A stretch of 64,000 nt of DNA from a virus, in IMG/VR virus record IMGVR_UViG_3300032893_000005, positions 64,001-128,000 of that record; one strand, written 5' to 3'. This document shows, in pieces, positions 7,502 through 47,754 of the stretch; positions within the stretch are counted from its first letter, which is position 1; every line of letters starts with the position of its first letter. The notes under the pieces are model-generated. The model made no database searches and had not been told where the DNA came from. It saw only the letters and a program-made list of their open reading frames with translations. Both the position numbers and the translations under genes were made by a program.

Positions 7502-8571
7502 TGCGTACGTTGATCAAGGTCAAGTTTGGCTCTCACCTATATGGTACCAGTACGCCGGAGTCCGACCTGGACTTCAAGTCTGTGTTTGTTCCATCAGGCC
7601 GCGACATCTTACTCGGCAGATACCCTAAGACCAGCATCAACGAGTCGACCAAGAAGGACAACGACGTCAAGAACACGTCTTCTGACGTCGACAGCGAGGA
7701 CTTCTCCCTGAACGGGTTCATCCGGCTCTTATCTGAAGGTCAGACGGCAGCCTTGGAGATCCTGTTTGCTCCTGACGACATGATCGTCGAGATGGACCGT
7801 GAGTGGGCACTCTTTCGCGACAACGCTCATAGGCTAGTCCACAAAGACGTGACCGCGTTCTTCGGGTATGCTCGCCAGCAGGCCGCGAAGTACGGCCTAA
7901 AGGGGTCCAGGATCAGCGCTATCCGTCGCGTGATGGAGTACCTTGACCAGTTCAGCGAAGATACTAAGCTGCAAGTACTGTACGACGCTGAGAGCGTAGT
8001 TCCACGGGACAAAGGCCTAAGGTCTTTCGTAGAGAAGAACTCAGACTTGAAGCTCGACGAGAGCGAACCGTTGATAAAGTTCACGACGAACAACTACGTT
8101 CGCAACGGTCAGCAGTGCGAAGAGACGTACTTCGAAGTTTGTAACCGCAAGATCCCGCTCCACAACAACGTCAAGCATACGAAGCAGGTCTTCCAGCGCG
8201 TCTGGGACGAATACGGCAAGCGTGCACGTCAGGCTGAGACCAACGAAGGAGTCGACTGGAAGGCCTTGTCACATGCCGTCCGTGTTGGGAAGCAAGCTTT
8301 AGAGCTTCTGACTACCGGTAGAATCACGTTACCACGCCCGGAAGCCGCAACTCTCCTTGCGATCAAGAAAGGTGAGCTTCCTTACAAGGAAGTTGCCAGC
8401 CTAATCGAAAGCTTGCTTGAGGAACTCAAGATCGTTCAGAAGGAGTCTACGCTTCCAGCCAAGTTTGACTCTGCGCTGGGCGAAGACCTTCTACTTCACT
8501 TCTACGAGATGGCCGTCTTGGACGCCGGTGAAGCCGACCAGCTTGCAAACATGAGGAACGTGTACCCGTGA
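7501..8571 (+). CDS. Phage nucleotidyltransferase (Pol-beta superfamily)
   Basis: FGSHLYGTSTPESDLD motif; GYARQQAAKYGLKGSR; DWKALSHAVR. Confidence 0.88.
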   Translation: MRTLIKVKFGSHLYGTSTPESDLDFKSVFVPSGRDILLGRYPKTSINESTKKDNDVKNTSSDVDSEDFSLNGFIRLLSEGQTAALEILFAPDDMIVEMDREWALFRDNAHRLVHKDVTAFFGYARQQAAKYGLKGSRISAIRRVMEYLDQFSEDTKLQVLYDAESVVPRDKGLRSFVEKNSDLKLDESEPLIKFTTNNYVRNGQQCEETYFEVCNRKIPLHNNVKHTKQVFQRVWDEYGKRARQAETNEGVDWKALSHAVRVGKQALELLTTGRITLPRPEAATLLAIKKGELPYKEVASLIESLLEELKIVQKESTLPAKFDSALGEDLLLHFYEMAVLDAGEADQLANMRNVYP

Positions 8572-8723
8572 CCAAAGACGACGTCCGTTTTCTAATCTTG
8601 ATGATGGCGCTCGCGTTTGCGATCATGATGGTCGCTTGCACCAAGAAGACGACTAAGGTCGATGACTTTGGCATGTGCATGATCCCGCACACAGACGTGA
8701 AGCCGCCTGAGGAGATGATGTGA
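8568..8723 (+). CDS. Small lipoprotein (51 aa, not in ORF track)
   Basis: GTG start overlapping upstream stop; MTKDDVRFLILMMALAFAIMMVAC lipobox; fills the gap exactly. Confidence 0.7.
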   Translation: MTKDDVRFLILMMALAFAIMMVACTKKTTKVDDFGMCMIPHTDVKPPEEMM

Positions 8724-20689: not shown

Positions 20690-22865
20690 TCGACTTCAAC
20701 AACTGCATCATGGAGTTCGAGGTTGGACACTACGCGATCGCCGAGGTCGGCGGTGTCCTGACGAAGTACAGGGCATACGAGATCTTAGAGCGACGTCCCG
20801 AAGAAAACCAGCTCCTACTGAGAGATGACAGTAAGGATTCTCCCGTAGAGTTCTGGGTCGACTCTCGATGTTTTCGATACTTCCCGTACAGCGCAGTCGT
20901 CTTCGCTGAGGGTGAGCATAAGACCATCGACGAGCTTCTGCACGAGATCGCCTACTCCTGGGACCACACCTACTGGCCATCGACACTACATAAGGACGAA
21001 GATGGCTTGTTCCACGTCAACAAGCTAACGATCAGCCCGTTCTGGACTGAGTACAAGGGTCAGTACGAGAAGGTCGCGCCGGGGCTCTACGAGTACCTGT
21101 GCCGCATATACGAGGTGATCGAGGAAGCCCGCGAGAAGTTCGGGAAGCCTAAGATGTTCGACGGGACGGAGGTTCAGGATGAGTAACTTTCTGCAGATGC
21201 TTAAGAAGGCCCGCAAAGACCTCATCGACGCAGGCATGAGCTACAGGGACGTGAGCGAGCTGATCACGAACGGCCAAGTCTCCTTCGACACTTCGCTAGA
21301 CGACCAAGCAGAGCAGATGAAGTGGAAGCTGAAGAAGCTTGGACTTAAGGTTGACATAACGACGACCGAGTCGAGTCACTACAACAGAGAGTCACACAAG
21401 ATGTGGGTCCGCCTGTGAAGACGGTTGACATCTACGAGCCTGGCGACAAGATCAGCCTCTACTCGTGCCCGCGCTGCGGTCGCAACGTCTACAACGAGGT
21501 GACAGGTGTCGACTGCTACGGAGCCAACGACATCACCACCTACATCAAGTGCCTAGGCTGTAACTTGCTCTACTGGTTCAGCTCGTTTACTGGCAGAACA
21601 AACACTAACGGGAACGATGCCGCATGAAAACTCTGAAGTACGTCTTAGGATCTGCTGCCATCCTCTACGCGATGGGGAGCCTAGTCATGCTAGTGTCTGG
21701 GCTTCAGGATAGTCAGTGGGGTCCGATGTTCTCAGACTGCAGGACTGACAAGAACCACCTTGAGCAGATCTTCTTACCGGCATACTCAGCCGGATGCTGG
21801 CTGGGGCACAAGTGAGCGCCGCAGACAAGAGGCACGCCAACCACGGAGAAGTATTCAGCGGGTCGATAATGATCCAGCAGGGCTACGCCATAGCCACGAT
21901 GAACACCTGCGCGATGTTCCAAGACCGTGGACTACACGGCTCATCAGGGGACGTCAACGGTAGAGCCATCATGATCAACAGGAGCAACTCTATAATGGGG
22001 TCGGAGGAAGCCTGGGAGAGGAACAAAGCTCTCTTGGAGTCCAACGATGACTAGGCAGCAGAAGATCAACTTGATCAAGGTCCTTCGATGTTCGCTCAAG
22101 TCAGAGAACATCACTGATTACTGTGACGGCGACGGAATAGGTTACTCCAGCACTGCAAGCTACTCCAGAGATGTAGCGGTGAAGCATAACGACGAGCTGA
22201 GGGCGTTCATAGCCATCTTGACTCGGGAAGTGAAGAAGAGTAAGATCTAGGTAGCTCTAGGAGGGACTTATGAGCGATCTGGCTGCATACCTTATCGGTT
22301 TCATCGGATTCTTGATCTTCGTCTACAAGATCATACGCGTTCTGACGCCTCAGAACGACCTCATGGACGCCATCGACACCTCCCTCCGCTTCGCTTACTG
22401 CGAACTCCGAGACGCTGAGGACGAGGTTGGCAAGCGCTTCTACATGAACCAGATTGAGACGCTCAACCGAGCACTCTCTGACGCCGCTCGAGGCGGTGTG
22501 CCGGAGGACTTCGCATGACCTGGGACAAGGCGCAACGCTTCTTCAACGGTGCGATCGTCGGCGCAGGCGCAGCCCTGATCATCGCCTTCGCTATCGGACA
22601 GGTAACTGCCTGGATGTTCTTCTGGTTCGGAACCTGGACCGGGCTAGCGATCGGAACTAAGATCGTCCGGTACTGGAGGAGTCGATGAAGACCACTAACC
22701 AGCCACTCATCCTACCAGCTCCGCGCAAGGAGAAGAACGGCGTCTTCTTTGACCCCTACAACTGGAAGTGCAACACCGACAACGGCAGGAAGAACTCCGC
22801 CGACTCACGCCGCAAGACGAAGTTCAAGCCACGAACGATCGCTGACGTCATCGCAGAGCGTGAGA

Positions 22866-23868: not shown

Positions 23869-24315
23869 ATGGACAACTATCAGCAAGAGCGTGCTAAGGA
23901 AGCTGGTCGGATGATCGGCTTCACCGTCGGTGGAACGATCTCGTTCGTGATCCTGCTCCTGTTCTACATGATCGGCTGCCCGCAGTACAACGTGTACCAG
24001 CAGCGCATGGAAGGTGAAGCGCAGCTCGCTCACGCCGAGTACTCGAAGAAGGTTCAGGTCCAAGACGCCCTCGGTAAGCTCGAGGCTTCAAAGTCTCTGG
24101 CCGAAGTCGAGGTCACCCGCGCTGGCGGCGTGGCCCGAGCAAACAACATCATCGGCGACTCGCTCAAGAACAACGAAGCCTACCTCCGCTGGCTCTACAT
24201 CGAGGGCTTGAAGGAGAAGCAGGGCACTGAGGTCATCTACGTGCCGACGGAAGCCGGTCTTCCTATCCTCGAGGCTGGTAAGCGCGTGATGAAGCTCCAA
24301 GAGGAGAAGAAGTAA
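23869..24315 (+). CDS. Membrane-anchored coiled-coil protein related to SPFH/band-7 C-terminal region
   Basis: TM helix; PQYNVYQQRMEGEAQLA...ANNIIGDSLKNNEAYLRWLYI...VIYVPTEAGLPILEA. Confidence 0.75.
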   Translation: MDNYQQERAKEAGRMIGFTVGGTISFVILLLFYMIGCPQYNVYQQRMEGEAQLAHAEYSKKVQVQDALGKLEASKSLAEVEVTRAGGVARANNIIGDSLKNNEAYLRWLYIEGLKEKQGTEVIYVPTEAGLPILEAGKRVMKLQEEKK

Positions 24316-24673: not shown

Positions 24674-25039
24674 ATGAACCGTCGTGGCTTCATCCGTGGC
24701 ATGCTTGCGGCAGCAGCGCTCGCCGCTGTTCCGTTCAAGTGGGCGTTCAAGCAGACGTCCAAGGTCTTCACTGGCGCAAGGGCTAGGATCTTCATTAACG
24801 GTAAGTTAATCGCTTACACAGGCGAAGTTACCGTATCCTACGATCCCAAAGATTTATCCATGCATACTATTGGACAGTACAAACCTGAAGAAGTTAATCT
24901 AGGACCAGTTGAGTTCACTGCTACTGTCACGCGTGTAGTAAAGGGTTCTGAGTGGGACAAGCTCATGAGCCTTTCTGACGAAGACCGCGAAGCTCTCTTG
25001 AACGAGAATCCGCCAGTTCGTCGCGAGGACATCACATGA
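24674..25039 (+). CDS. Twin-arginine signal fused to a tail-tube-like domain
   Basis: MNRRGFI + hydrophobic stretch; VFTGARARIFINGKLIAYTGEVTV aligns with LVTGASSKVVVNGKVVGFATNVTI of 47314-47754. Confidence 0.72.
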   Translation: MNRRGFIRGMLAAAALAAVPFKWAFKQTSKVFTGARARIFINGKLIAYTGEVTVSYDPKDLSMHTIGQYKPEEVNLGPVEFTATVTRVVKGSEWDKLMSLSDEDREALLNENPPVRREDIT

Positions 25040-25486: not shown

Positions 25487-25816
25487 GTGACTAACGGAAG
25501 CTGGATCGGCGTAGACCTTGACGGGACGCTCGCCCACTACGATGGCTGGAAGGGTCCTGAGCATATCGGTGAACCTGTTCCTATAATGATGGCCCGCGTT
25601 AAAACTTGGCTTGCTCAAGGCCGTCGTGTTAAGATCATGACAGCTCGAGCTAGTGATCCCGCACAGGTCGTCCACGTCAAAAAGTGGCTGGTCAAGCATG
25701 TCGGGATCGAGCTTGAGGTTACGAACGTAAAGGACTTCCAGATGGTTGAGCTTTGGGACGATCGGGCAGTGCAAGTGATCCCGAACACAGGCCGAAGAGT
25801 GGACGGTATGCCATGA
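25487..25816 (+). CDS. HAD-superfamily phosphatase (PNKP-like)
   Basis: WIGVDLDGTLA, IMTAR, VTNVKD...LWDDRAV. Confidence 0.85.
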   Translation: MTNGSWIGVDLDGTLAHYDGWKGPEHIGEPVPIMMARVKTWLAQGRRVKIMTARASDPAQVVHVKKWLVKHVGIELEVTNVKDFQMVELWDDRAVQVIPNTGRRVDGMP

Positions 25817-26167
25817 ACACGATCGACATCGTGAGCATGCACGTAGAAGTCCTCGAGATCGCCGAGCAGGTAAGGAATGCTCCTGCTGGCGTTAGCCTCG
25901 ACCTACTTGATGCCCGCCTAGAGGCCATGAAGAGAAAGCTCCTGGCTGACATAGACGAGCGCTTAGAAGAGATTGCGCGAGAGGAGATGGGCTGATGGAG
26001 ACCTACACGACTGAGCCGTTACAGATCCCAGACAACGCCATGAGGCACCTAAGGACGATGTACCCCGGCCACTTCGACGATCAGGAGATCGTTGAGAAGT
26101 TTGTGACTGAGTGCATAATGAAGTTGCTCGATCCCCAGGAAGAGATCAACAAGTTGGAGGAAACCCC

Positions 26168-26353
26168 GTGAAGTACCTTATCCTTGCCCTTGTCCTGATG
26201 GCTGGATGCTCGAAGGGGCCGGACCCGATCGAAGTCTGCCGCGACTACTGCACTGGTTACCTTGACACCATAGTAAGGATCGGGACCGAGCGCAGCGACA
26301 ACCTTTACCACTGCCGCTGCAGCAACAGCGGGAAGAGGAACGGCGATGAGTAA
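26168..26353 (+). CDS. Small Cys-rich lipoprotein
   Basis: GGAGG RBS, GTG start, KYLILALVLMAGC lipobox; CxxxC and CxC. Confidence 0.7.
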   Translation: MKYLILALVLMAGCSKGPDPIEVCRDYCTGYLDTIVRIGTERSDNLYHCRCSNSGKRNGDE

Positions 26354-36004: not shown

Positions 36005-37120
36005 TTATAGTCCGCAGTCAACTGTCCAGTGAGCGGTATAGAAGTGTCCGGCAGTAAGAACAGCACCGCCCTCTATCGTCACGTAGTTCTCTCCCCAGTT
36101 GAAGTTGGTGGGAGTGATCGACGTATCGCTGGAAGAGTTGTTGTCGTGAACCTTGCCAGCGGTACCAGTAGTGTCCGAGTAGAACTGCACCAGAGTGTAT
36201 GTTCCAGGAAGGCGCTTAGGTACCTTGAACCAGGCCTTACCACCGTCACTCATCGTTTGAGTATCGGTAGCGATGTTGCGGTAACATCCATTTTCGTTGG
36301 CGGTGCCAGGAGCAACTCCTTGCGGATAGCTCTTCTCGTAGTAGCGCTGACACAGCGCAAGCTCTTGCTGGATGCTTCTGCCGTTGCGAGCAAACCCAGT
36401 CGCCGAGAAGCCCAAGGGTCCTTCGACGATCGAGAACTGAGCAATCTGGAAAGTTGCGCTGCTGGTAGCCATCCAGTTCGTGGCAGAAGAAGCAACTACG
36501 TAGCTGCCAGCCTGCCAAGAGTTGAGGGTAGAAGTCGCGTACGTGGTTCCGGCATAACTTCCTATGTCGACGTACAGTGCGTTCGTGTTGTCGAAGTTCC
36601 ACGTGCCAACAGTGTCCATCTGGACTGAGATAGAAATAAACTGCCACGTACTGGCTCCGTTGATGGTAAACGTAGTGACGTAGCTTCTGTTGGTAGACCC
36701 ATTTCTAAGAGCGAACGAGTAAGTTCCAGTTACGGAAGCTTGAGCCCAGAACCCAAAGGTCACTGTTTTTTGATGGATCTTCTCAAAGTCTAGCCCTTCC
36801 ATTCGGTACTGACAAACCTCTACGTAGTCCGAGGCTGCGAAGGATGCTATCCCCGTAACCATCGTTGCCAGTAAGCTGTACGTACTCTGAAATCCTGACT
36901 GGGCTACGGTAGGTATCGTAGCAGACCTAGCTATCGAGTAGTTCTTAACAGTTGATCCTCCAGAATCGTAGGTGAACATGTCGGCGGCATATCCAGAAGT
37001 TGTGGTCGCAGTGTTGACCGTCGTGGTGCTACCCTCGACGCGCTGCCAGAAGTCGAAGGCACCGTTGATCGCCAGGTTCCTGATCTCAGATGGTGTATGT
37101 GCGCCTATGATCTTACTCAT
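36005..37120 (-). CDS. Tail/head fibre protein
   Basis: RNLAINGAFDFWQR ... ELALCQRYYEKSY fibre motifs. Confidence 0.78.
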   Translation of the reverse strand: MSKIIGAHTPSEIRNLAINGAFDFWQRVEGSTTTVNTATTTSGYAADMFTYDSGGSTVKNYSIARSATIPTVAQSGFQSTYSLLATMVTGIASFAASDYVEVCQYRMEGLDFEKIHQKTVTFGFWAQASVTGTYSFALRNGSTNRSYVTTFTINGASTWQFISISVQMDTVGTWNFDNTNALYVDIGSYAGTTYATSTLNSWQAGSYVVASSATNWMATSSATFQIAQFSIVEGPLGFSATGFARNGRSIQQELALCQRYYEKSYPQGVAPGTANENGCYRNIATDTQTMSDGGKAWFKVPKRLPGTYTLVQFYSDTTGTAGKVHDNNSSSDTSITPTNFNWGENYVTIEGGAVLTAGHFYTAHWTVDCGL

Positions 37121-37128
37121 GTTTCACC

Positions 37129-39750
37129 TTAAATCTCCGCGTCCGCAGTCCAATGGATTTTATACGCAGTTTGCGCCGCTGGCGTGACGGAAGTACCAAT
37201 AGTTACACTACCTAGTCCCACTGTCAATATAGATGATGCTATTGAAGCGCTGTTTGTACTAGTTTCCCAGGATGCTCCACCCGAGACAGGATTGATACCG
37301 GTAACTGTCGGTGAAGCTCTCTTCTCTGCCTTGAAGCCAACTGACACTAATAGACCACCGGTAACATTTGTACCGATTGACCACCAACTTGCTGTATCTA
37401 CGACTGTACCTGGAGCTGTTCCAATGTCATAACTCTTCTCGTAGTAGCGCTGACAGAGAGCAACTTCTTCACCAAAGTACCGTCCAGCTCTGGCAAATGT
37501 CATGGCAGTAGCGCCGATGTTGACTTCAGCTTGTTCAACCACGAACCCGTTGTTGAGCGCGTACAAGTTGCCGCTTGATACTCCAGTGATACGAACCCTG
37601 ATGCCTATCACGCCGCTCGCCGTTGGAGTGTTACCGCTGTTCTGGTTGAGCAGAGAAGCGAGCGTGAAGCCTGACGAGTTGACGGTGACAAGCTGCTCAG
37701 TTCCGAAGAACAAGGTCGGCTTGATCTCAGAAGTGGCGTAGGCGAACTGGATACCGACCTGGTTCACGTTGCCGAGAGCCTTGACGTACATGCTGGCCGA
37801 GATGCTCTGGTTTATGAGGTCGATCGACATCGGGTTCTCTATCACCTGGTAAAGCTCGGTCACGTTCGCTTGCGAAGCTGTCGGGGCGGTCGTGATCTGA
37901 ACAGAGCATCCATACTTGGAACCGGGCAAGGTGCCTGTAACTTGTGACATCGTGATGACGCCAGAAGTTCCGAGGCCGTTCTTCACGTACCATCGATCGG
38001 CTGCGACGTAGGACGAGCTGCCGTTTGCGATCGTAGCCGAAGTCTGACGCTGCCACAGGTCGAAGGCGCCGTTGATCAAGTAGTTCTTGAGGCCGTTGGT
38101 CTGAAGCTGAGTGATAGCGGTCGAGTTCTGACTCGATACGTCAACGACCTGAACACGGTAGACGATCATGAAGTCAAGTGCCAGTGAGCTGTAATCCTTG
38201 TCGAGCTGGATGATGGTCGAGCTGACCTCAGTGTAGTAACCGTCAGAGGTCGGGACAGAACCAGCGACGTAGCGCGGGAGCATCTGACCGTTGACGTAGA
38301 CGTCGAGGATGCCGTAAGCGTTTCCTGAGTTCACGCCGATCGGGTACTGAAGACCGCCGGTCAAGGCGATCTGTGTCTTACCACCTACGACGGACAAGGT
38401 GCAGTTGATGGGAGAAGTCGAGCTGTTAGTTACACCGTAAGCAGACCAGAGGGTAGCGCCTGAGGCAGAGCCCAGAGCCTTCTGCATGAAGGCTTCGTAG
38501 TTGAGCAAGTTGACGAAGCCGGTGCCAGAAGACCTTGCCGAGAAGAAGCGGAGGTAGAGGCTCGTTCCCGAAGTCGGGGCCACGTCGCTCTGCATCTGGT
38601 CGGTCGTGTTCGTAGTGCGAGTCTGGAGGGTCATCCAGTTCGTGTTGTCGGTTGATCCTACGTAAGCGCAGAACGGAGCAACGTCGGGCGTCCAGAGGTT
38701 TGATCCAGAGGCCGCGTTGTCCTCGTAGTCCACCATGATCTCGGAGAACGCAGTAGAGCCGAAGGAGGCAGAGATCGCTGCGGCAGTCGAGTTCGCGTTG
38801 TAGTTGTAGATGTCAACCGTGTGGACGCACTGCGACACGCAGCAAGCCACAGCGCTCGGGTTAGAGGCAAAGGCCGACTCGATCGTGAAGGGGGTTCCCG
38901 CACCACCGTCGGAGTTGATCGATCCGATGACCGTGATCTTCCTGACCTCGCCAGTCACCAAGTTGATGACGACGTCACCAGCAGCGACCGTGAAGGCAGG
39001 TCCTGATCCACCGCTGATGTGCATGGTAACAGAAGTGTTGGCGGTTATCGTGCGCGATGCGTCGTAGTTGATCGTGTACATCTGCTTCGCGGCGTTGTAC
39101 GAAGCGTTGGTGAAGCCAGTGTTCGCGTTGACGGCAGATACGGAGTTGGTCGGGCCTTCGGTGAAGGGCTCGATGAACACGGCACGGAACTGGAGGGTGT
39201 CCAGGTCGGAGCCAGAACCACTGGTACCGGAGCCTCCGCCTTGACCAAGGCGAAGCGTCTGACCAGCGTTCTGGGCGAAGCCGTTGCGCCAGTACAAGCG
39301 CTGGGTTCCGTCAGCAGCGTCTACGCGCTTGGCGATCAGGAAGACTTCCTGGTTCGCGTTGACCGCAGCAGACAGCGCAGAGCCGTTGGTGACGATCGAG
39401 AGCGTTGCGGTTCCAGCCGTGCGGTTTAGGACCGCGACGAGCATGTCGCCGGAGTTCGTGAAGTTCTGGGAAGAAGAACCGAGGCTAATGACCTGGGGTA
39501 CAGCGCCAGAGATCTTCTGGTTGACTGTGATCTTGAGGTTGTCAGTGAACTGGACCTGAGTGCCGGTGAACGTGATGGTACCGCCGTCTGTCAGGAGGAT
39601 GTTTCGATCCTCGAACAGCTTGCCCATCTCTCCGTCTATGTTAGAGAGGAGGGTGTCGACGCCGGTGTTCGCCGCGTTGCCGATCATGGACGGAGTACTT
39701 CTCAGTATACTCTGCCTGATGTCCTGATTCGTTGTTCCTGGTCCTGGCAT
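37129..39750 (-). CDS. Long fibre protein
   Basis: C-terminal third paralogous to 36005-37120 (KNYLINGAFDLWQR, EVALCQRYYEKSY). Confidence 0.78.
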   Translation of the reverse strand: MPGPGTTNQDIRQSILRSTPSMIGNAANTGVDTLLSNIDGEMGKLFEDRNILLTDGGTITFTGTQVQFTDNLKITVNQKISGAVPQVISLGSSSQNFTNSGDMLVAVLNRTAGTATLSIVTNGSALSAAVNANQEVFLIAKRVDAADGTQRLYWRNGFAQNAGQTLRLGQGGGSGTSGSGSDLDTLQFRAVFIEPFTEGPTNSVSAVNANTGFTNASYNAAKQMYTINYDASRTITANTSVTMHISGGSGPAFTVAAGDVVINLVTGEVRKITVIGSINSDGGAGTPFTIESAFASNPSAVACCVSQCVHTVDIYNYNANSTAAAISASFGSTAFSEIMVDYEDNAASGSNLWTPDVAPFCAYVGSTDNTNWMTLQTRTTNTTDQMQSDVAPTSGTSLYLRFFSARSSGTGFVNLLNYEAFMQKALGSASGATLWSAYGVTNSSTSPINCTLSVVGGKTQIALTGGLQYPIGVNSGNAYGILDVYVNGQMLPRYVAGSVPTSDGYYTEVSSTIIQLDKDYSSLALDFMIVYRVQVVDVSSQNSTAITQLQTNGLKNYLINGAFDLWQRQTSATIANGSSSYVAADRWYVKNGLGTSGVITMSQVTGTLPGSKYGCSVQITTAPTASQANVTELYQVIENPMSIDLINQSISASMYVKALGNVNQVGIQFAYATSEIKPTLFFGTEQLVTVNSSGFTLASLLNQNSGNTPTASGVIGIRVRITGVSSGNLYALNNGFVVEQAEVNIGATAMTFARAGRYFGEEVALCQRYYEKSYDIGTAPGTVVDTASWWSIGTNVTGGLLVSVGFKAEKRASPTVTGINPVSGGASWETSTNSASIASSILTVGLGSVTIGTSVTPAAQTAYKIHWTADAEI

Positions 39751-46709: not shown

Positions 46710-46862
46710 CTAGGACTGGGTGTCCTCAGGATTAAGATCTTGAGCTAACCGGCTGATTTGCTTGTCTTTCTTTCGATCGTATTTGGTCTCATCACCGTGA
46801 TTTTTGTTCGGCGGTAGCTTGAGGCGCATGCTGGGCTTCTGGACCTTCTTAGGCTTTCGCAT
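46710..46862 (-). CDS. Small basic protein (50 aa, not in ORF track)
   Basis: MRKPKKVQKPSMRLKLPPNKNHGDETKYDRKKDKQISRLAQDLNPEDTQS; overlaps the EndoVII stop. Confidence 0.55.
   Translation of the reverse strand: MRKPKKVQKPSMRLKLPPNKNHGDETKYDRKKDKQISRLAQDLNPEDTQS
46730..46742 (-). promoter_or_regulatory. Putative late promoter motif AGATCTTAATC
   Basis: 13-bp identity with 42508-42520. Confidence 0.6.
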
Positions 46863-47301
46863 TGAGGTAGTCCAGGACGCTGTGAACAACTTCGGGTCGA
46901 TCTTCGAGATGGCCCAGTATGATGTTGCAGCTAAAGCAGATCAGACCGCGCACTCTGCCGGTCTTGTGGCAGTGATCAACCGTCAAGTTCTTGATCTTGC
47001 CTGTTTGAGGATAAACGGCAGTCTCCGGGTTCGTGCATATCTTACAGACCCCGTCTTGCTCGGCAAGCATCTGATTATATTGATCAAGTGTTATACCGTA
47101 CTTATGCTTAAGCATGCGATTCTTGGCTTCAAGCGGATTTCTCGCCCTTGTAGCTCGTTGATAGCCCCGCTGCTTTGCCCGTCTGTCTGGGTTGTTAAGA
47201 CGTGAAGCATCGTAACATGCCTGACAAAGACCCTTACCGATATGTTTTCTATCGGGATGACAAGTGGGATGTTCGTAAGTGGGTGGTCTACCAATTCTCA
47301 T
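46849..47301 (-). CDS. Endonuclease VII-family (His-Me) endonuclease
   Basis: KYGITLDQY..MLAEQDGVCKIC...VDHCHKTGRVRGLICFSCN..LG. Confidence 0.9.
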   Translation of the reverse strand: MRIGRPPTYEHPTCHPDRKHIGKGLCQACYDASRLNNPDRRAKQRGYQRATRARNPLEAKNRMLKHKYGITLDQYNQMLAEQDGVCKICTNPETAVYPQTGKIKNLTVDHCHKTGRVRGLICFSCNIILGHLEDRPEVVHSVLDYLNAKA

Positions 47302-47313
47302 ACAATTACTTTA

Positions 47314-47754
47314 TCATGCTTTGGCGTCCGAGACCTCATTATAGTAGAAGAGACCTTGGAAGCTCGCGCTGAAGGTGTTCACGCCTTTGACGCTAGTTGT
47401 TATACTGTCCTTGTCGAAGATCACGCCGACCACGCGGGCGTAGGTCGTGTTGAGCTTGCGGTCGATCAGCTCGATCACGCAGTACTTCTGGTTGAGGAGG
47501 TCTTGGAGAGTCGAGGCATTGATGATGCCGAAGCCTGCGGGTCCACCGATGTCGCGGACCTGAAAGCCAGCCATGGTGCCGGTGACGGAGTAGGGGCCAG
47601 TCGTCGCGATCTCCTGAGGAGGAAGAACGTCGATGCCGTAGATGGCCTTGACACCCTGAGAGCGGTTGATGGTGACGTTGGTCGCAAAGCCCACCACCTT
47701 GCCGTTGACCACGACCTTTGATGATGCGCCTGTGACTAAAGATTGCTGTGACAT
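47314..47754 (-). CDS. Tail tube-like protein
   Basis: 146 aa beta-rich; TGA..KV.VNGKVVGFATNV...I.GI....PQEI pattern of myophage tube proteins; context. Confidence 0.7.
   Translation of the reverse strand: MSQQSLVTGASSKVVVNGKVVGFATNVTINRSQGVKAIYGIDVLPPQEIATTGPYSVTGTMAGFQVRDIGGPAGFGIINASTLQDLLNQKYCVIELIDRKLNTTYARVVGVIFDKDSITTSVKGVNTFSASFQGLFYYNEVSDAKA

Follow-up and report, generated by a model that had tools for sequence, protein, structure and literature searches.

An ORF of 121 aa at positions 24674-25039 (plus strand) of the window, by which we mean the whole 64,000-nucleotide stretch of phage DNA analysed here, very probably encodes a Tat-type (twin-arginine) leader joined to a truncated tail-tube domain. 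The protein is a new combination of two known parts, rare and conserved. Among the functions considered for it, the one we favour, with a probability of roughly 0.35, is that of an envelope-targeted tube mimic that would interfere with the tails of incoming phages. In the literature searched, no phage protein combining a leader with a tube fragment was found, nor any virion-protein fragment sent to the envelope, and to our knowledge phage-encoded Tat substrates are hardly known.

Gene position and the twin-arginine leader

The source record is 154,091 bp long, with a CheckV completeness of 94%, and the window corresponds to its bases 64001-128000. No close GenBank phage was identified for this 154-kb genome, and its sheath shares 37% identity with the sheath of Myxococcus phage Mx1. 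Small early-type ORFs are densely packed in the left half of the window (1-32 kb, plus strand), and among their products are an SNF2 helicase, a 2OG-Fe(II) oxygenase and an RlaP-like nucleotidyltransferase; the right half (minus strand) is occupied by the baseplate and fibre module. The 121-aa gene lies within the early small-ORF block, on the strand opposite to the tail module and not beside the sheath gene. Its position and translation are as first quoted in the initial annotation, and its ATG is the earliest start available in frame after the preceding stop. Since this start overlaps the upstream stop (ATGA) and the stop of the gene overlaps the ATG of the next ORF, the gene sits in a translationally coupled array.

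Several small genes of the same block were also recorded. One gene upstream, at 23869-24315 (plus strand), is a membrane-anchored protein of 148 aa that matches phrog_11227 ('protease') with an E-value of 2.8e-48; about 90 nt of its gene are 76-78% identical to 'protease' or 'membrane protease subunit' genes of Klebsiella jumbo phages of ~300 kb. Small ORFs with lipobox-like motifs or single hydrophobic helices occur at 1370-2077, 8568-8723 and 26111-26353 (plus strand), as well as at 22270-22688. Judging from such membrane and lipoprotein candidates, the early block seems rich in envelope-directed proteins. Finally, an ORF of 109-124 aa at 25487-25816 (plus strand) is shared with a second phage (L007 3923-4297), the two copies being 63% identical (BLASTP E 2e-46). 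Pfam assigns no family to this product, which is encoded by the sole nearby gene conserved along with the 121-aa gene.

The N-terminus of the 121-aa protein had been read as a twin-arginine motif, and this reading is borne out. The leader extends over residues 1-27 (24674-24754, plus strand) and consists of M-N-R-R-G-F-I-R, 13 uncharged residues and a basic stretch, with a helix predicted from residue 3 to 27. Its motif, N-R-R-G-F-I-R at residues 2-8 with the RR pair at residues 3-4, conforms to the S/T-R-R-x-F-L-K-like pattern. The core of 13 uncharged, Ala/Gly-rich residues ends with V-P-F, has a mean Kyte-Doolittle value of 1.95 and is followed by a Lys-rich stretch, in agreement with the rule, from TATFIND, that a Tat h-region comprises about 13 or more uncharged residues. 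The protein scores 20.1 bits (E 5.7e-4) against Pfam TAT_signal (PF10518), for which the curated cut-off is 22.7, and 14.6 bits against TIGR01409, for which it is 16.7. When the whole 154-kb genome was scanned in six frames with PF10518, a single site was detected, which is this leader, at 23.3 bits and E 1.7e-5, a match that takes in one codon ahead of the ATG. A regular-expression scan of all genome ORFs revealed no second credible Tat candidate, the records of two relatives contained no Tat-tagged protein besides the family member, and no TatA gene was found in the phage genome. The profile of the family also gave a weak match to chain 9e04_H, the signal peptide of CueO.

The likeness to bacterial Tat signals, such as those of E. 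coli CueO and SufI or those described by PF10518 and TIGR01409, lies in the RR pair followed by F and I, the mildly hydrophobic Ala/Gly core, the Pro near the end of this core and the basic residues after it. In contrast to these signals, the leader is encoded by a phage, its n-region is very short, no clear AxA stands at the usual place, and its scores fall slightly short of the curated thresholds; its cargo is a virion-protein fragment and not a cofactor enzyme. Downstream of the hydrophobic core, the 2-4 Lys/Arg make for a heavier basic stretch than is typical of Tat signals. As for cleavage, a conserved A-x-A|A falls within the hydrophobic core, a [TV]-W-[TAS] site past the Pro occurs in most homologs and is absent from the 121-aa query, and no clear, conserved AxA stands at the usual leader position. 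Overall, the leader probably targets the 121-aa protein to the envelope.

The tube-derived region and its parentage

The tube-homologous core spans residues 28-74 (24755-24895, plus strand), corresponds to tube strands 1-4 and carries the T-G-A-R-A...N-G-K and G-x-Y-x-P-x-E motifs of the tube family. In residues 75-121 (24896-25036, plus strand), a low-confidence alignment points to what is probably a fifth strand and the single helix of the tube, followed by an acidic tail, and homology to tubes probably reaches residue ~100.

Two full-length tube-fold proteins, of 146 and 155 aa, are encoded by the genome, and the families of both carry precomputed Pfam PF26461. The 146-aa paralog (47314-47754, minus strand; PF26461, phrog_985) belongs to the baseplate/fibre module, is not adjacent to the sheath, and may be a tube initiator or a distal tube protein. 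Immediately downstream of it, inside the structural module, is an endonuclease VII gene (46849-47301, minus strand; PF02945, E 3e-25), which may be a homing-type insertion. The 155-aa protein (G000:C1:147462-147929, minus strand) is encoded outside the window, directly after the 490-aa tail sheath (147947-149419, minus strand; phrog_279), the joint span 147462-149419 being equivalent to L003 1237-3194. Because of this position, the 155-aa protein is likely the tube proper. Its AlphaFold2 model (pLDDT 62) gave the tail tube of phage 812 as the best Foldseek match (E 1.3e-5), followed by pyocin R2, monocin, Hcp, GTA and DSR2-bound tubes.

The near-gapless alignment to the 146-aa paralog on which the initial annotation was founded was recovered by BLASTP, with residues 33-85 of the 121-aa protein facing residues 8-61 of the paralog (15/54 identical, one gap, E 0.21). 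It also withstood shuffling: the Smith-Waterman score of the pair was 75, compared with 26.1 +/- 4.4 for shuffled sequences, and none of 2000 shuffles reached 75 (z = 11). At the profile-profile level, the small family matched the 146-aa paralog with a probability of 95.4% (E 1.7e-8), and hhalign against the 155-aa tube family reached 98.4% (E 5.6e-15; residues 28-74 versus 4-50), the homology of the small family to tubes being confident over 47-56 columns only. Both the 121-aa and the 146-aa proteins matched phrog_3776 in register (E 7e-5 for the 121-aa core). The small-family profile further matched the solved tube of phage 812 (PDB 8Q01, 8q01_A), with residues 28-89 facing residues 6-68 (E 0.0015), and showed a weak match to PBSX XkdM.

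That the C-terminal half of the fold is missing, as had been proposed, was equally confirmed, since hhalign, including under relaxed settings, found in the 121-aa protein no counterpart of tube residues ~90-134, which form three long C-terminal strands in the 155-aa tube model. The complete tube fold (~140-155 aa with long C-terminal strands) does not occur in the small family. By sequence, the product derives from the Phi812-type tail tubes; since both this fold and a location in the tail module are lacking, annotation as a tail tube protein is not appropriate. Compared with its homolog in Staphylococcus phage 812/K (PDB 8Q01; PHROG 985; PF26461), which is related to residues 28-89 of the small-family profile, the fragment is restricted to the N-terminal half, bears an export-type leader and is encoded outside the tail module; alone, it is unable to complete the beta-sandwich of the tube wall. 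Duplicated tube folds are likewise represented by the T4 tube initiators gp48 and gp54 and the terminator gp3, which start or cap the tube via tube-tube interfaces. These T4 proteins, however, are cytoplasmic parts of the virion with a full-length fold and have their genes within tail modules, whereas the 121-aa protein is truncated, leader-tagged and encoded among early genes.

Structure prediction was less informative than profile comparison. With an alignment of 11 sequences, AlphaFold2 modelled the 121-aa protein with a mean pLDDT of 60 and a pTM of 0.27, moderate confidence being limited to the leader helix, the first hairpin and two C-terminal helices; the elements predicted after the core were E87-89, H91-98 and H102-111. 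A Foldseek search of this model against the PDB gave no match below E 2.5, and an ESM Atlas look-up of the 121-aa protein returned weak leads to tail-tube clusters (scores 0.80, TM 0.33-0.41). Prediction of a complex between residues 28-121 and the 155-aa tube, both supplied as alignments and run without controls, scored 0.00, a value with no bearing either way. Given this low-quality monomer model (pLDDT 60), it is possible that the fragment does not fold by itself. The Tat system normally rejects unfolded cargo.

A tree of the shared region grouped 10 of the 11 small proteins in a single clade (96/97 support), which neighbours the sheath-adjacent tubes and is distant from the clade of the 146-aa paralog. 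The remaining protein, P0013, formed a long branch with one true tube, a placement that may be an artefact or may reflect a second origin. As judged from this sequence tree, and from the profile alignment, which is better with the 155-aa than with the 146-aa family, the closest parent of the 121-aa gene is the lineage of the sheath-adjacent 155-aa tube and not the 146-aa paralog. The kinship with 47314-47754 put forward in the initial annotation is thus real in terms of significant homology, but it does not designate the nearest parent.

A conserved accessory family and the age of the fusion

Homologs were collected by an exhaustive HMMER search over 1.8 billion representatives, together with a word-indexed search and a scan of viral contigs. 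About 12 were obtained, with sizes of 97-121 aa including the leader and 29-57% identity to the query; both parts occur together in these proteins, and the contigs or phages that encode them have GC contents of 44-57%. The motif R-R-x-F-[ILVM] is retained in 11 of the 12 proteins, at residues 3-7 or, in one case, 6-10, and conservation within the family is 90% or more at positions R3, R4, F6, P20, T33, G34 and G43. The hydrophobic cores of the homologs comprise 11-21 uncharged residues followed by 2-4 Lys/Arg. Their sequence is variable and their character constant, and the leader therefore has the signature of a working targeting signal. Matches to TAT_signal at E<0.01 were obtained for 4 of 11 family members and matches to TIGR01409 at E<0.05 for 5 of 11, P0002 being the sole member above the curated cut-off of the latter, with a score of 17.9. 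The exception to the motif is P0012 (L010 385-687), which has a hydrophobic N-terminus without RR. A frameshift masking the RR pair in P0012 was considered and rejected, as no upstream frame contains one.

All copies are found in arrays of small early-type ORFs and never in tail modules. Two homologous loci lie near the same landmarks as the 121-aa gene, either the SNF2 helicase or the 109-124-aa ORF. The existence of a conserved operon partner was rejected because immediate neighbours differ between loci. One relative whose genome is 96% complete, and which has the same tube family, possesses neither the gene nor any TAT_signal match, indicating that the gene is accessory. No family member was detected by tblastn among GenBank phages, pattern scans of GTDB genomes found neither the small protein nor the tube, and a metagenome scan recovered one locus only, which was already among the known homologs. 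The carriers are a clade of large uncultured contractile-tailed phages (~145-155 kb) that are distantly related to Myxococcus phage Mx1.

This distribution bears on the age of the fusion. A GC content of 64% at 24681-24760 and of 38% at 24791-24900 had been counted by hand, and computation gave 63.75% and 38.2%, respectively, for a genome mean of 54%. Among pairs of segments taken at the same spacing along the genome, 0.16% show a contrast this large. The conclusion initially drawn from it, that of a recent chimera, has nevertheless to be abandoned: the same fusion, with both its parts, is present in ~12 diverged homologs without the GC contrast, and 10 of the 11 proteins in the tree form one clade. 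The GC difference between leader and domain is 0.19 in 24674-25039 and <=0.06 in four homologs, and DNA alignment with three homologs revealed no near-identical segment pointing to recent exchange. The fusion is considered old because it is common to proteins with identities down to ~30%, on contigs of 44-57% GC. The dip to 38% GC at 24791-24900, inside the tube-like part, is real, absent in homologs and not explained by the available alignments.

Possible roles at the host envelope

The gene very probably arose when the phage duplicated its own tail-tube gene long ago; the copy retained only the N-terminal half, with strands 1-5 and probably the helix, and gained a twin-arginine leader. According to the scenario that we favour, this leader would direct the fragment to the host Tat translocase, which presupposes a host with a periplasm and a Tat system, and the fragment would end up either soluble in the periplasm or at the inner membrane, on its periplasmic side. 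It may stay anchored, because there is no clear, conserved AxA at the usual position. Export would have two consequences: an incomplete and potentially poisonous tube subunit would be withheld from the phage's own cytoplasmic tail assembly, and the fragment would be put where the tube tip and the tape-measure protein of a second infecting phage emerge. There, a tube mimic with an unsatisfied beta-sheet edge could attach to the distal ring of the tube or to the tape-measure protein and so prevent DNA entry, and the outcome would be superinfection exclusion against kin phages with the same tube. Several observations speak against this proposal, namely leader scores just below both curated cut-offs, the P0012 protein without RR, the heavy basic stretch and the poor monomer model.

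A comparable site of action is documented in T4: Imm prevents superinfection through binding to the tape-measure protein, whose membrane helix is held at the inner membrane by gp48, a distal tube-fold protein (bioRxiv 10.64898/2026.03.06.709160). Like Imm, the 121-aa protein is small, non-structural and, by prediction, envelope-located, and both would act at the inner membrane, at the site of the tube tip and of the tape-measure protein. The two proteins differ in that they have no sequence or fold relation, and in that Imm is a membrane protein of the Sec/YidC type and not a mimic of a virion protein.

An alternative that we regard as unlikely, though not negligible, is that the fragment acts as a decoy for a tube-sensing host defence. 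Displaying the best-conserved surface of the tube, at its N-terminus, it would bind the sensor, DSR2-like or another pattern receptor, early in infection, and the leader would park the sensor complex at the membrane or translocase, or export it by hitch-hiking, so that the sensor would be unavailable once the real tube appears. Tail tubes are established triggers of DSR2 (PMC10981675, PMC11087589). The location of the gene in the early/accessory block, the retention in the fragment of the invariant motifs of the tube family and the presence of tube-DSR2 complexes among the fold matches of the parent 155-aa tube are in keeping with such a decoy. However, a fragment that activated the sensor rather than blocking it would harm the phage, and none of the anti-DSR2 proteins known to us is a tube mimic, which counts against this alternative.

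It is more doubtful still that the N-terminus is no export signal and represents a hydrophobic helix with basic flanks that keeps the protein on the cytoplasmic side of the membrane or mediates protein contacts, the fragment then acting on tail assembly inside the cell. A tether of this kind would be consistent with the 2-4 Lys/Arg C-terminal to the hydrophobic core, with the lack of RR in P0012 and with the scores of the query below the curated cut-offs. Yet no part of the leader is better conserved than R-R-x-F-[ILVM], which is shared by 11 of 12 proteins, and the leader is the only such site in the genome. Moreover, a half-tube left in the cytoplasm would risk poisoning the phage's own tail assembly.

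With a slightly lower probability, the protein could be a periplasmic sensor or regulator of the phage's late functions, either an antiholin-like product that, as T4 RI, senses the tails of superinfecting kin and delays lysis, or a regulator of envelope remodelling. The N-terminal signal and small domain of ~70 aa recall the size and layout of RI, a protein of ~100 aa with an N-terminal signal (PMC8385771), and small membrane proteins are encoded nearby, at 22270-22688 and 23869-24315. On the other hand, no holin or endolysin was found beside the gene, the neighbours are not conserved between homologous loci, and there is no sequence similarity to RI. Least probable of all is a jamming of the Tat pathway for host take-over, by which the leader, on a poorly folding domain, would occupy the TatBC receptor or its proofreading step and lower the export of host Tat substrates, among them cell-wall amidases and redox enzymes: the strong conservation of the leader motif but not of cleavage sites, and a cargo predicted to fold poorly, would suit it, but it does not account for a conserved tube-fragment cargo whose tube motifs are kept under selection, and no precedent was found in the literature searched.

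If the favoured function is correct, with the exported protein binding the tails or tape-measure proteins of incoming phages, it would constitute a new form of superinfection exclusion, in which specificity is built in through homology to the target; the removal of a tube sensor would instead amount to a new anti-defence principle. More tentatively, Tat-type leaders on fragments of a phage's own virion proteins might form a recurrent, undescribed accessory class of structural mimics that are exported or parked at the translocase. Such relocated mimics, if they exist, would be directed at rival phages in the envelope or at host sensors that recognise conserved virion proteins, and the 121-aa gene would then exemplify a new strategy of counter-defence or exclusion that works by relocating a mimic. 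As the family is small and conserved, with a simple two-part design, these possibilities are directly amenable to experimental testing.

A further duplication may concern the tail fibres. Two adjacent tail-fibre genes in the right half of the window (36005-37120 and 37129-39750, minus strand) have a C-terminal domain in common (phrog_4492, E ~1e-33 each), which suggests a duplicated or alternative receptor-binding tip.
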